From Candidatus Saccharimonadota bacterium (GTDB lineage Bacteria; Patescibacteriota; Saccharimonadia; Saccharimonadales; Saccharimonadaceae), in assembly GCA_001029695.1 (NCBI GenBank), contig CP011211.1, positions 420,001-452,000 of the forward strand: a stretch of 32,000 nucleotides of DNA, in the 5' to 3' direction. The notes under the pieces were generated by a model. It was not told where the DNA came from and made no database searches. It worked only from the letters and a program-made list of their open reading frames with translations. Shown piece after piece: positions 3,918-31,404 of this stretch. The translations under genes were made by a program, and so were the position numbers. How positions within the stretch are numbered: the stretch's first letter is position 1; every line of letters starts with the position of its first letter.

Positions 3918-3926
3918 TGCTATACT
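3918..3926 (+). promoter_or_regulatory. Extended -10 (TGcTATACT), leaderless-type promoter of murB
   Basis: The -10 hexamer ends 7 nt before ATG 3934 and no SD sequence fits in between. Confidence 0.55.
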
Positions 3927-3933
3927 AAGCATA

Positions 3934-4962
3934 ATGGACATACAGATACATCAACCTCTTTCAAACTACACTACTATACGCATCGGCGGCCCTGCACATT
4001 TCGTTGCCGACACACACACTGTCGAAGAACTCATGGCAGTCGAAACAAACGCGAAGCGACTTGGACAGAAGACCTATGTAATAGGTGGCGGGAGTAACCT
4101 CATAGGGCGCGATGAAGGGTTCGATGGCGTCATCATACGCAACCAAATCCCTGGCTTTGATGTAATCGCCGACGACAGTGAGTCTACAACCTTAAAAATA
4201 GGCTCTGGCGAACTTTGGGATAGTGTCGTTGCTCGAACAGTCGACATGCAGCTCAGTGGCATCGAAGCCTTATCGCTCATTCCGGGTACTGCAGGCGCAG
4301 CTCCTGTGCAAAACGTCGGAGCTTACGGACAAGAAGTTGCCGACACTCTCCAATCTGTCGAAGCATACGATACGACATCTGGCAATATGGTCGAACTGTC
4401 ATGGCAAGACTGCGAGTTTTCATATCGTCACAGTATATTTAGAGGCAGTTCGTATGGACGCTACGTCATCACCTCCATCACACTCAAGCTATATAAGAAA
4501 ACCCCCGAGCCACCATTTTACGCCGCCCTCCAATCTTACTTAGACGAGCACGGTATTCATGAGTACGACGTCGCCACTGTCCGCGAGGCCGTTATCGCTA
4601 TTCGAAAAGACAAGCTCCCCGACCCATCCATCCTCCCAAATGCTGGCTCATTCTTCAAAAACGCTATCGTGGAAGACTGGCAGCGTAACTCGCTCCTCGA
4701 ACAGCACCCCGACATGCCGTCATACAAGATGGATGAGAAACACTACAAGATCCCAACAGGCTGGCTCATCGAACAAACTGGCCTAAAAGGCGAGTCACTT
4801 CACAACATGAAAGTTCACGATGCAAACGCACTCGTACTTATCAACCAATCAGCGACGAGCTATCAAGACCTCGCCAATGCTAGAGCGCAGATCGTAGGTG
4901 CCGTTCGCGACCTGTTTCAGATCACCATAGAGCAAGAGCCACTCGAGATAACCAACCAGTAA
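3934..4962 (+). CDS. murB: UDP-N-acetylenolpyruvoylglucosamine reductase
   Basis: 342 aa. The N-terminal SNYTTIRIGGPAHFVA...VIGGGSNLIGRDEGFDGVIIRN is the MurB FAD-binding signature. The C-terminal GSFFKNA and KIPTGWLIEQTGLKG motifs are typical of MurB. Confidence 0.9.
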   Translation: MDIQIHQPLSNYTTIRIGGPAHFVADTHTVEELMAVETNAKRLGQKTYVIGGGSNLIGRDEGFDGVIIRNQIPGFDVIADDSESTTLKIGSGELWDSVVARTVDMQLSGIEALSLIPGTAGAAPVQNVGAYGQEVADTLQSVEAYDTTSGNMVELSWQDCEFSYRHSIFRGSSYGRYVITSITLKLYKKTPEPPFYAALQSYLDEHGIHEYDVATVREAVIAIRKDKLPDPSILPNAGSFFKNAIVEDWQRNSLLEQHPDMPSYKMDEKHYKIPTGWLIEQTGLKGESLHNMKVHDANALVLINQSATSYQDLANARAQIVGAVRDLFQITIEQEPLEITNQ

Positions 4963-5047
4963 AACATCAGTAAAGTGCTTGCGCTTACAACGTGAACGTA
5001 GTATATTACTAACTATACAATCAACTAAATAGGGGGCACTTATTAAC

Positions 5048-5512
5048 ATGAGTCTTCAGAAGATAAACAAACTTAAAGACGAAAAAGGTTTCACGATCGT
5101 TGAGCTCCTCATCGTTATCGTTGTTATCGGTATTCTTGCGGCGATTACGATTGTAGCGTTTACTGGTGTACAGAACCGTGCGAAAGTTGCCGGATATAAG
5201 TCAGATGCTAACGGTATCGCAAAGGTAGCTGAAGGATATAATGCTGACAAGCAAACTTATCCCGTGGGTGCAGATGCGGCTGCTACAAAAGCTCTATACG
5301 AAGCAACCACCAACGCAGTCAAGCTACCACCTAACGTCAAGGTTTTAGCTGTTACTGCAAGCCCTACGATCACAGCTAGCAATGGACCAACAGTAAGTTC
5401 TACAGACAAGACCTACACTGTATGGGCATGTGCAGCTGGAGCGAACGTTTACTATTTCGATTCAACAGCAACTCCAACAACACAAGTTGTTAAAGCGGGA
5501 GACGGCTGCTAG
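5048..5512 (+). CDS. Type IV (major-type) pilin
   Basis: MSLQKINKLKDEKGFTIVELLIVIVVIGILAAITIVAF is a class III signal peptide (G|FTIVE). The size of 154 aa and the C-terminal Cys pair (WAC...GC) fit a pilin D-region disulfide. A G-rich SD (TAGGGGG) lies upstream. Confidence 0.85.
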   Translation: MSLQKINKLKDEKGFTIVELLIVIVVIGILAAITIVAFTGVQNRAKVAGYKSDANGIAKVAEGYNADKQTYPVGADAAATKALYEATTNAVKLPPNVKVLAVTASPTITASNGPTVSSTDKTYTVWACAAGANVYYFDSTATPTTQVVKAGDGC

Positions 5513-5514
5513 TC

Positions 5515-5573
5515 ATTACCGTAAAGTCTAAAAAAGCTCGCATATTGCGAGCTTTTTTAGACTTTACGGTAAT
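5515..5573. terminator. Bidirectional terminator, perfect 28-bp stem with 3-nt loop
   Basis: ATTACCGTAAAGTCTAAAAAAGCTCGCA-TAT-TGCGAGCTTTTTTAGACTTTACGGTAAT. It sits between the convergent pilin and glyA genes. The inner GC core is flanked by A6/T6. Confidence 0.85.
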
Positions 5574-5583
5574 TTAAACGCGA

Positions 5584-29800: not shown

Positions 29801-30279
29801 ACCTCGTGAACAGAGGTACTCTGCAGCGCTTTCAGATCTTCTATGACTTTCTCGCCATGACCAAGAGGAGTAACACGTCCATATACTTTTTGCACGATAC
29901 CCTGCGGATCAATAATAAAGGTCTTTCGAAGTACACCCTCTTTTCCAAACTGCTTTTTACCCCACGCGCCATATGCCTCCATAGCGACACCATCCTTGTC
30001 GGTGAGAAGCGTAAAGTTGAGTGAGTACTTTGATTTAAATTTATCATGACTTGACGCATCGTCTTTACTGACTCCAATCACCTCAGCGCCAAGCTCAACA
30101 AGCTCATCACGCGCATCCCGTAAGCTGCAAGCCTCTACTGTACATCCGGGTGTATCGTCTTTTGGATAAAAGTAAACAACTACCCATTTTCCAGCGTATT
30201 CAGCAAGCATATGGAGTGTGCCTGTTTCGTCTGGTAAGGTAAATTCTGGTGCTTTGTAGGGTGGTTGTTTCATTGTCAT
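29797..30279 (-). CDS. bcp: Thioredoxin-dependent peroxiredoxin (Bcp/PrxQ type)
   Basis: FYPKDDTPGCTVEACSLRD carries the peroxidatic and resolving Cys (PxxxTxxC...C). 160 aa. Confidence 0.9.
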   Translation of the reverse strand: MTMKQPPYKAPEFTLPDETGTLHMLAEYAGKWVVVYFYPKDDTPGCTVEACSLRDARDELVELGAEVIGVSKDDASSHDKFKSKYSLNFTLLTDKDGVAMEAYGAWGKKQFGKEGVLRKTFIIDPQGIVQKVYGRVTPLGHGEKVIEDLKALQSTSVHEV

Positions 30280-30287
30280 ATATATCT

Positions 30288-30293
30288 AGTATA
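30288..30293 (-). promoter_or_regulatory. -10 box TATACT (minus strand) for bcp
   Basis: The minus strand reads GAGAGTATACT-AGATATAT-ATG, an 8-nt spacer that makes bcp near-leaderless. Confidence 0.4.
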
Positions 30294-30325
30294 CTCTCTT
30301 CAGCAAAGACTCAACCAAGTTAAGG

Positions 30326-30331
30326 TATACT
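30326..30331 (+). promoter_or_regulatory. -10 box TATACT for the OpgC-like gene
   Basis: It ends 11 nt before ATG 30343, so the predicted leader is only a few nt and has no SD. Confidence 0.4.
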
Positions 30332-30342
30332 AGAAAACAACT

Positions 30343-31404
30343 ATGGTACACGAAAAAAAGTCTCGCCGAATGCTGTCACTTGATTACTTGCGAGGTTATT
30401 TTATCGTTGTTATTATCATTGACCATCTATATCGATGGCCTAGCGCACTTGCACTTTTAACTGGCCAGGGTTATCTATGGTTTAACGCGGCAGATGGATT
30501 TGTGATCGTCTCAGGACTCATGATCGGATATGTACGAGGCTACAAAGGCTTAAAATTATCATACTGGGATGTAACAAAAAAACTATGGAGCCGAGCATTC
30601 CTTTTGTATATTTGGCTGATTACCAGCACACTCATCTATACCACGCTCGCTTGGCTCAACCCTAGCCTACAAGGACTCCCATACGTTCCGATAGCAAACG
30701 GTGCATGGCTTGATCTTGCCTGGCAGGCTGTCACTATGCAATTCTCTTATGTCTGGATTAATTTCCTCTATCTCTACACTATCTTCCTAGTCATTGCACC
30801 AGCCGCCGTCTGGCTTTTGCGCAAACGACTCGCATGGGTAATTGTTGCTCTATCGCTAATTGGACTATTAATCGGCGACATGACAAATATAAAGTGGCTC
30901 CAATGGCAACCGCTATTCTTTATTCCATCTGTCGCCGGGTTCTACTTAGAATCAATTCAGTCGTGGTGGAATTCCAAAAAAGCAACAAAAAAGATCATAC
31001 CTACAGCAATTTACAGCCTCACATTCATACTACTTGGAGCTTCAGTGCTGACGACATTCATCCTTAGCTCAAACCCAACCATTGATGCTGTCAATCTCTA
31101 TTTCAATAAAGAACATATAGAGCTCGGGGGAGTTATCGTTTCCCTTATTACATTCTGCGGCTTCGTATTATTTTTCATACAACACGAGTCGTTTATCCAA
31201 AAATGGCTCGGCTGGCTGCTGCATCCGTTCGGAGTAAACTCTCTGACAGCGTACATCCTTCACGGGATTGTCATTATATTTATCGCTGCTACTATACCTA
31301 TTAGTCAGTCGATCATCCTTAACACTCTTGCTGGTATTTTTGCTGTCGGAGCAACTCTCCTTTTACTCAAAGTACCTCTCATCACAAAGATCTTACCTCG
31401 ATGA
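30343..31404 (+). CDS. OpgC/acyltransferase-3-like polytopic membrane protein
   Basis: N-terminal LSLDYLRGYFIVVIIIDHL (the R-G...H pattern of OpgC/acyltransferase_3 proteins) and about 10 predicted TM helices. Confidence 0.55.
   Translation: MVHEKKSRRMLSLDYLRGYFIVVIIIDHLYRWPSALALLTGQGYLWFNAADGFVIVSGLMIGYVRGYKGLKLSYWDVTKKLWSRAFLLYIWLITSTLIYTTLAWLNPSLQGLPYVPIANGAWLDLAWQAVTMQFSYVWINFLYLYTIFLVIAPAAVWLLRKRLAWVIVALSLIGLLIGDMTNIKWLQWQPLFFIPSVAGFYLESIQSWWNSKKATKKIIPTAIYSLTFILLGASVLTTFILSSNPTIDAVNLYFNKEHIELGGVIVSLITFCGFVLFFIQHESFIQKWLGWLLHPFGVNSLTAYILHGIVIIFIAATIPISQSIILNTLAGIFAVGATLLLLKVPLITKILPR

Follow-up and report, generated by a model that had tools for sequence, protein, structure and literature searches.

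In a 32,000-nt stretch of the genome of a Candidatus Saccharimonadota bacterium (assembly GCA_001029695.1, contig CP011211.1, positions 420,001 to 452,000 of the forward strand; hereafter the window, numbered from its first letter), many protein-coding genes are preceded by a TATAAT-like box that ends a few nucleotides before the ATG. Our analysis suggests that this box is very probably the −10 element of a housekeeping sigma-70-type promoter, which would give rise to leaderless mRNAs in ~13–15 of the 32 window genes (spacer 6–8). Here, the spacer is the number of nucleotides between the end of the box and the start codon, the box pattern is TANNNT and its extended form is TGnTANNNT (TGNTANNNT). 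The window has a GC content of 39–49% and carries four tRNA genes, and its protein-coding genes include those for MurB, a type IV pilin, GlyA, a fusion of a helix-turn-helix (HTH) domain to MurA (HTH-MurA), MurT/GatD, a peroxiredoxin and many small accessory proteins.

A preliminary description of this DNA had listed a series of such boxes, all of which we recovered, each at the reported position and spacing to an ATG (Table 1); a further unit, with ATG 31423, was absent from its list. A TANNNT at spacer 6–8 precedes 13 of the 32 gene starts compared to 66 of the 1080 other ATGs in the window (6%; binomial p 1.9e-8), and the TGNTANNNT box precedes 8 of the 32 compared to 4 of the 1080 (0.4%; p 3.4e-13). 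Likewise, TGNTANNNT-N6-7-ATG occurs 10 times in the window, against 2.85 ± 1.7 in dinucleotide shuffles. The pattern of a box before the ATG is therefore confirmed as real in the window, far beyond chance. The TG extension is present in 8 of 15 units. Most units show 3–5 mismatches in the −35 hexamer; HTH-murA has a perfect TTGACA and a 17-bp spacer between the hexamers. Three genes had been set apart as looser cases; this is borne out for 30279 (minus strand, 8-nt spacer) and 30343 (11-nt spacer) but not for 6941, which is HTH-murA and has a clean 6-nt spacer together with its perfect −35. A further 11-nt case, CATAAT upstream of 22675 (minus strand), resembles 30343.

To place the window in its clade, the GlyA protein was scanned against one genome per GTDB species, yielding 80 loci with a GlyA identity of 74–84%. 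Most of these are labelled Candidatus Saccharibacteria, Saccharimonadales or Saccharimonadia; the remainder carry generic names ('bacterium', 'Patescibacteria group bacterium'), and one is labelled 'Acidobacteriota bacterium'. Together with the window, the survey comprised 81 loci, 1.39 Mb, 1185 open reading frames (ORFs) of at least 120 aa called by a first-ATG rule, and 538 protein families, 428 of them singletons. The genome-scale alignment that the preliminary description had proposed, run on these 81 Saccharibacteria loci, returned a sharp TANNNT peak at fixed spacing, with 167, 114, 68 and 83 ORFs at spacers 6, 7, 8 and 9 compared to ~42 per position elsewhere. For TGNTANNNT, the corresponding counts were 71, 36, 20 and 33 against a background of ~3.5. 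The core of the Shine–Dalgarno (SD) sequence (GGAG, GAGG or AGGA) forms a separate peak at spacer 4–11 in other genes, and these two peaks lend computational support to the earlier proposal that leaderless and SD-led initiation coexist.

The loci are orthologous neighbourhoods, and the resulting bias was mitigated by weighting per family. With each family counted once and the window excluded, the extended box at 6–9 nt is 13-fold enriched (bootstrap confidence interval 9.4–18.8) and the net box excess amounts to 14–18% of families; for ORFs or families overall, it is ~18–22%. The excess is seen in 59 of the 65 loci having at least 10 ORFs, with a median per locus of 33% compared to 12% at the control offset. 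The term 'pervasive', as used in the preliminary description, would thus translate into about 20% of all genes, or roughly one third or more of transcription units. Strong −10 matches are present at spacers of 6–11 and of at least 21 nt and number only 1–4 per spacer at 12–20, which is the bimodality expected if an mRNA either is leaderless or carries a leader that can accommodate an SD. Leaders too long for leaderless initiation yet too short for an SD are avoided.

A motif-centred scan of the clade gave the same picture, as ATG follows the extended box 92 times at 6 nt and 82 times at 7 nt (vs ~8), while GTG, TTG, CTG and ATC at 6–7 nt are at background level only. Enrichment of ATG alone is expected if a 5′-terminal AUG itself recruits the ribosome. 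When the motif-centred scan was applied to 150 kb of the Deinococcus radiodurans megaplasmid, from a lineage known for leaderless genes, a peak appeared at 6–7 nt, and E. coli gave none. In the survey pipeline, 200 kb of E. coli K-12 showed an SD peak and no peak at 6–7 nt.

At 6–8 nt from the start codon, the box lies where a ribosome-binding site would lie, as is remarked for M. tuberculosis in the description of GeneMarkS-2 (PMC6028130). It could thus be a translation signal, i.e. an AT-rich non-SD ribosome-binding or unstructured element with the transcription start site further upstream, like the 'group B' motifs of Bacteroidota in GeneMarkS-2. A generic two-hexamer (−35/−10) sigma-70 scan also found the window no richer in promoters than its shuffles (31 and 30 sites vs 31.7 and 32.6); however, such a scan tells little here, as a −35 is missing from most of these promoters. 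We consider a translation signal very improbable, since the box looks and behaves like a promoter element. In an alignment of 415 boxes, 53% have G at −14 and 45% have T at −15, T is also favoured at −17, and a weak TTG signal appears at the canonical −35 to −33 (T 47%, T 38%, G 34%). Genes for tRNAs, although untranslated, have the same box: as had been described, it lies upstream of all four tRNA genes of the window (Table 1), and among 269 clade tRNAs an extended box lies within 60 nt in 149, with a peak 9–17 nt from the mature 5′ end. The predicted pre-tRNA 5′ leaders are accordingly only ~2–10 nt long. An extended box at 6–7 nt from the mature 5′ end was found in none of the 269 tRNAs, as if a minimal leader were retained for RNase P.

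The distribution of the box among genes also argues against a translation signal, as a group B motif would precede all genes. Co-directional genes with a gap of <25 nt, i.e. probable operon-internal genes, have the box at the background frequency of 7% (29% of them are SD-only), compared with 35% for divergently transcribed genes and 44% for those with a gap of 25–79 nt. Conversely, SD-led genes (e.g. glyA and cupin) can also have the box, then 20–35 nt upstream. Two strong terminator hairpins, furthermore, abut boxes: one at 15704–15664 (minus strand), directly before the box of 15634 (ΔG −34.3 kcal/mol, z −7.5), and one at 24322–24361, ~15 nt before the box of 24392 (ΔG −26.2 kcal/mol, z −8). 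A terminator scan of the window missed both of these, its strongest hairpins, and they were folded directly. They exclude an earlier transcription start and leave no room for a leader, so that a new transcript could start only at the ATG. Finally, the base at −1 of the ATG is a pyrimidine in 75–78% of box-bearing cases, which fits the preference of transcription start sites for Y(−1)R(+1).

Back-to-back divergent promoters occur in very short intergenic regions of the window (27769–27809, 9518–9542 and 6894–6911). In the 41-bp gap between ATG 27768 (minus strand) and ATG 27810 (plus strand), the −10 boxes at 27775–27780 and 27797–27802 each sit at the −35 position of the other promoter, and this divergent arrangement is retained in orthologues.

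Comparison of orthologues indicated that the predicted mode of initiation, leaderless or SD, is conserved gene by gene across related species. A box at 5–9 nt is found in 69% of 59 MurB, 78% of 73 HTH-MurA and 92% of 12 MurT family members; the SD type is found in 82% of 80 GlyA (with the box 20–30 nt upstream), 92% of 12 cupin and 78% of 9 GatD members. The distance from box to ATG is kept across species although the flanking intergenic sequence varies. At the acyltransferase gene 30343, the box lies at 7–8 nt in two of three orthologues. The accessory genes between 11292 and 24392 had no orthologues among the 80 loci, and their starts were hence judged by Pfam domain boundaries.

These comparisons bear on a second alternative, in which the box is a true promoter and the real start codons lie further downstream, the beginning of each ORF being a conventional leader that has an SD inside it. 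Since these genomes derive from metagenomes, their start codons are indeed only predicted, and at the Bcp peroxiredoxin gene (30279) the two orthologues found (L013, TATAAT + 6 nt + ATG; L060, TACACT + 6 nt + ATG) have an ATG that aligns with the second ATG of the window gene. Nonetheless, we give downstream starts very little credence. For 11 of 15 candidates, the proposed ATG is the 5′-most possible start, with an in-frame stop 9–78 nt upstream and no start in between (e.g. 12 nt upstream of 6941, 18 nt upstream of 13812 and 12 nt upstream of 16571); ATG 11292 likewise has no in-frame alternative upstream. Pfam domains begin 1–14 residues from the proposed N-termini (His_Phos_1 at residue 3, YunG at 5, ASCH at 7, AhpC-TSA and OpgC both at 9). 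In the product of 18499, residue 3 corresponds to position 1 of the His_Phos_1 profile and the catalytic RHG motif occupies residues 7–9, making a downstream start impossible. Orthologue N-termini align to the same ATG, and the enrichment specific to ATG at exactly 6–7 nt would lack an explanation. The murB product contains Pfam domains MurB_C and FAD_binding_4, and an identical protein in NCBI assembly GCA_001790535.1 is likewise called as 342 aa.

The preliminary description had also moved three automatically called starts to fit the box, and each of these corrections agrees with the evidence. For the shift from 14269 to 14278, GTG 14269 lies inside the box and the YunG domain begins at residue 5 when read from 14278. 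For that from 15652 to 15634, TTG 15652 is upstream of the box, which is itself preceded by the terminator hairpin. For that from 27774 to 27768, 11 of the 12 orthologues shown have a TACAAT/TATAAT-type box 6–7 nt before an ATG that aligns to 27768.

Chance or base composition, with boxes supplied by AT-rich intergenic DNA or by in-frame TAA/TAG stops that define ORF starts, can be rejected as having practically no likelihood: although TANNNT is common at 40–49% GC (~3.5% per position) and hexamers starting with TAA or TAG could be in-frame stops at spacers 0, 3, 6 and 9, the out-of-frame spacer 7 also peaks, the non-stop hexamers TA[TC]A[AC]T number 62 and 57 vs 1–4 at spacers 12–20, the peak persists in the motif-centred scan, which is independent of the first-ATG rule, and E. 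coli lacks it in the same pipeline, with window p values of 1e-8 to 1e-13.

If the box is a −10 element, RNA polymerase with the primary sigma factor would bind a promoter that is mostly of the extended type (T-TGnTATAAT), in which the −35 is weak or missing. Given how RNA polymerase generally behaves, transcription would start ~7 bp downstream, at the A of the ATG when the spacer is 6 and otherwise within 1–2 nt of it. The mRNA would then begin with 5′-AUG, leaving no room for an SD, and the ribosome and initiator tRNA would bind the 5′-terminal AUG directly. This leaderless pathway is established in Actinobacteria, in Deinococcus and with model mRNAs in E. coli. Operon-internal genes would be served by SD sites or by overlapping stop and start codons. 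Thus, gatD (29078), the second gene after the putatively leaderless murT, has an SD (GAGGTG, 29067–29072) and an ATGA overlap, and the ClpB-like gene, if started at 27394, has a TGATG stop/start overlap with the upstream 124-aa gene, itself predicted to be leaderless. The ORF-track start of the ClpB-like gene at 27529 is unlikely, as ATG 27394 overlaps the upstream stop. A subset of first genes (glyA, pilin and cupin) would have leaders of 15–50 nt bearing a canonical SD. Every SD example given in the preliminary description is present, those at 9492 and 15963 belonging to minus-strand genes (Table 1). The SD-bearing leaders imply a normal anti-SD; a 16S 3′ end from which to read it was sought in the 81 loci and none was found. 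In a study of reduced ribosomes, the anti-SD motif was detected less often only in a subgroup of Parcubacteria, consistent with a normal anti-SD here (PMC9297842).

Several observations weigh against leaderless transcripts. The distance of 7 nt from the −10 to the start site is assumed, and in N. lyticus, the only bacterium of the Candidate Phyla Radiation (CPR) with RNA-seq-derived start sites, this distance was reported to be unusually variable (standard deviation >3.6 bp), which its authors attribute to either biology or imprecise mapping (PMC12641261). Spacers of 8–11 nt at 30279, 30343 and 22675 would give leaders of 1–5 nt rather than none, and the boxes of 13812, 15634 and 27810 have neither a TG nor a good −35. 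Gene calling in the survey was crude, and its loci are neighbourhoods of one gene. The case of 17748 is ambiguous: the reported box and its 6-nt spacing to an ATG are present, but this ATG opens only a 12-codon ORF (MKCMLGKNKKTY*) with its stop at 17784–17786. Two nt further on, and in another frame, ATG 17789 starts a CHAP-domain protein whose N-terminus leads straight into a transmembrane helix. Adding one A to the A7 run at 17772–17778 would fuse the two frames into MKCMLGKNKKNLLAMFFVITV..., i.e. a positively charged N-region followed by the transmembrane helix. The arrangement could therefore reflect a homopolymer indel, slippage or a leaderless upstream ORF with reinitiation.

Leaderless expression is a familiar feature of Actinobacteria and Deinococcus, and GTG is also common as a start codon in mycobacterial leaderless genes, whereas here only ATG is enriched. 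In GeneMarkS-2, such genomes form group C, with a Pribnow box 6–8 nt from the starts of operons' first genes and a ribosome-binding site elsewhere, and this group comprises 90% of Actinobacteria and 97% of Deinococcus-Thermus (PMC6028130). The Saccharibacteria pattern matches group C in each of the defining features that sequence can show. As in Actinobacteria and Deinococcus-Thermus (M. tuberculosis, M. smegmatis, C. glutamicum, S. coelicolor and D. deserti), the −10 lies 6–8 nt before the starts of first genes, 25–50% of transcription units are affected and the SD is kept for internal and some first genes. The differences are that the present organisms are Patescibacteria/CPR of the class Saccharimonadia, ultrasmall episymbionts of low GC (39–49%) in which the leaderless class is predicted from sequence, and that the box is mainly of the extended TGn type with a poor −35.

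Other systems share parts of this arrangement. In archaea (GeneMarkS-2 'group D'; Haloferax and Sulfolobus), mRNAs also start at or near the start codon and SD genes coexist, but the archaeal TATA box and B recognition element lie ~26 nt upstream, whereas here a bacterial −10 occupies −12 to −7, with TG at −15/−14. The extended −10 promoters of Gram-positives and E. coli have the same TG one base before the hexamer, a T-rich −17/−15 and a weak or absent −35; however, they normally drive leadered mRNAs, whereas here a large class is fixed 6–7 nt from the ATG. Individual leaderless genes known from E. coli and its phages (lambda cI and Tn1721 tetR) are similarly transcribed from the A of the AUG and depend on 5′-AUG for translation, but they are rarities in an SD-dominated genome, in contrast to the genome-wide, evolutionarily conserved class predicted here.

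The mechanism is not new. In the literature searched on leaderless and SD initiation, we found no paper that describes Saccharibacteria, TM7, Patescibacteria or CPR as having leaderless mRNAs, and a preprint on the TM7x transcriptome does not mention start sites, untranslated regions or promoters. Tentatively, leaderless initiation might be class-wide in Saccharimonadia, conserved per gene (the cell-wall genes murB, murA and murT in most sampled species), and might extend to Patescibacteria generally, a reading that we offer as possible rather than probable. It could be linked to the reduced ribosomes of these bacteria, from which uL30 and bL9 are missing and in which bS1 is short (PMC9297842), or to a position in Terrabacteria near leaderless-rich phyla, including the actinobacterial hosts. 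If so, CPR would be a third major bacterial lineage with a leaderless transcriptome of the actinobacterial type, and both start-codon annotation and the design of expression cassettes would need revision.

Start codons in metagenome-assembled genomes of Saccharibacteria are often called by SD-based models. A leaderless class would correct such starts (e.g. 14278, 15634 and 27768) and allow transcription units to be defined from sequence alone. The NCBI annotation pipeline uses GeneMarkS-2, so it probably handles this class implicitly. Saccharibacteria have become genetically tractable only recently, and an extended −10 placed 6 nt before an ATG would be a native expression signal useful for constructs. 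In evolutionary terms, an ultrasmall, host-dependent lineage with reduced ribosomes would be added to the heavy users of leaderless translation, which bears on the question of whether leaderless initiation is ancestral in Terrabacteria.

Table 1. Predicted promoter boxes and translation starts in the window. Unit types are predictions; distances between an element and the start codon or mature tRNA end are in nucleotides.
Feature	Coordinates	Strand	Elements
murB, leaderless unit	3918..3936	+	extended −10 TGCTATACT 3918–3926, 7 nt, ATG 3934
HTH-murA, leaderless unit	6906..6943	+	−35 TTGACA 6906–6911, 17 nt, −10 TAAGAT 6929–6934, 6 nt, ATG 6941
PRK/uridine-kinase-like P-loop protein, leaderless unit	11277..11294	+	TGGTATCAT 11277–11285, 6 nt, ATG 11292
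139-aa membrane protein, leaderless unit	13799..13814	+	TATAAT 13799–13804, 7 nt, ATG 13812
YunG family, leaderless unit	14262..14280	+	TGCTATAGT 14262–14270, 7 nt, ATG 14278
Leaderless unit	15632..15646	−	TATAAT 15646–15641, 6 nt, ATG 15634
148-aa protein, leaderless unit	16556..16573	+	TGCTAACAT 16556–16564, 6 nt, ATG 16571
Ambiguous unit	17733..17791	+	TGTTATGAT 17733–17741, 6 nt, ATG 17748
Histidine phosphatase, leaderless unit	18484..18501	+	TGCTATTAT 18484–18492, 6 nt, ATG 18499
ASCH domain, leaderless unit	24377..24394	+	TGCTATAAT 24377–24385, 6 nt, ATG 24392
124-aa membrane protein, leaderless unit	27766..27783	−	TGGTACAAT 27783–27775, 6 nt, ATG 27768
murT, leaderless unit	27797..27812	+	TATAAT 27797–27802, 7 nt, ATG 27810
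Bcp/AhpC-TSA peroxiredoxin, near-leaderless unit	30277..30293	−	TATACT 30293–30288, 8 nt, ATG 30279
Acyltransferase/OpgC, short-leader unit	30326..30345	+	TATACT, 11 nt, ATG 30343; predicted leader ~4 nt
PMT_2-like glycosyltransferase (ORF leaves the window), extra leaderless unit	31408..31425	+	TGGTATAGT 31408–31416, 6 nt, ATG 31423
glyA, leadered SD unit	6859..6902	−	TGCTATACT 6902–6894, leader ~25 nt, SD GAGGG 6874–6870, ATG 6861
cupin, leadered SD unit	9490..9526	−	TGCTATAAT 9526–9518, SD AAGGAG 9508–9503, ATG 9492
83-aa Gly/Ser/Arg-rich protein, leadered unit	15961..16048	−	TTGACA 16048–16043, 18 nt, TG-TATTAT ending 16019, leader ~48 nt, SD AAGGTGG 15975–15969, GTG 15963
Inositol monophosphatase family	22836..22849	+	SD AGGAGG 22836–22841, 5 nt, GTG 22847
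FMN reductase	23754..23772	+	SD AAGGAG 23754–23759, 10 nt, ATG 23770
SD gene	10546..10557	+	SD GGAGG 10546–10550, 4 nt, ATG 10555
tRNA-Arg (3730), extended −10	3710..3718	+	TGATATAAT, 11 nt before the tRNA
tRNA-His (8521), extended −10	8495..8503	+	TGCTATCAT, 17 nt before the tRNA
tRNA-Gly (9565), extended −10	9534..9542	+	TGTTATAAT, 22 nt before the tRNA; back-to-back with the cupin promoter
tRNA-Arg (11086), extended −10	11067..11075	+	TGCTATAAT, 10 nt before the tRNA

Some individual loci deserve mention. The product of 6941 is a MurA that has an XRE-type HTH domain joined to its N-terminus (PF01381 + PF00275). A perfect palindrome, TATATCAT-AA-ATGATATA (6913–6930), occupies the HTH-murA spacer behind the −35 and runs into the beginning of the −10. 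With at most one mismatch allowed, 50 of 73 HTH-MurA orthologues have the related pattern ATATCA-N3-6-TGATAT upstream, compared to 14 of 1112 other genes. The palindrome is probably an operator at which this cell-wall enzyme would repress the gene that encodes it.

The minus-strand region 15655–16048 comprises ~350 nt of GC-rich sequence. No other classical promoter in the window is as good as the one found here (TTGACA, 18 nt, TG-TATTAT), and a terminator hairpin of 17 bp is present as well. A structured non-coding RNA was considered at 15650–16020 (minus strand), but Rfam returned no match there, either at the gathering threshold or at E<=1. An SD-led reading from GTG 15963 fits better, and the region may be coding rather than a structured RNA. 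The 83-aa protein read from this GTG is predicted to be disordered and has a high content of Gly, Ser, Asn and Arg.

The stretch 11000–24800 has a lower GC content (39–45%) and carries small accessory genes (kinase, YunG, histidine phosphatase, CHAP, methyltransferase, ASCH, GH97-like, inositol monophosphatase and FMN reductase). These genes are essentially without orthologues in the 80 loci, yet no part of the window is denser in putative leaderless units. The stretch may represent a variable island.

In its C-terminal tail (24782–24950, minus strand), the ClpB/AAA+ protein carries a long (Pro-Ala)n repeat of ~28 units. Finally, region 249–3679 contains a pilin-like gene followed, with an overlapping start, by a gene for a 976-aa protein of RCC1/WD40-like repeats with regular Cys-Trp-Gly motifs. 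This repeat protein, encoded next to the type IV pilin gene (5048), may be a surface or host-contact protein.

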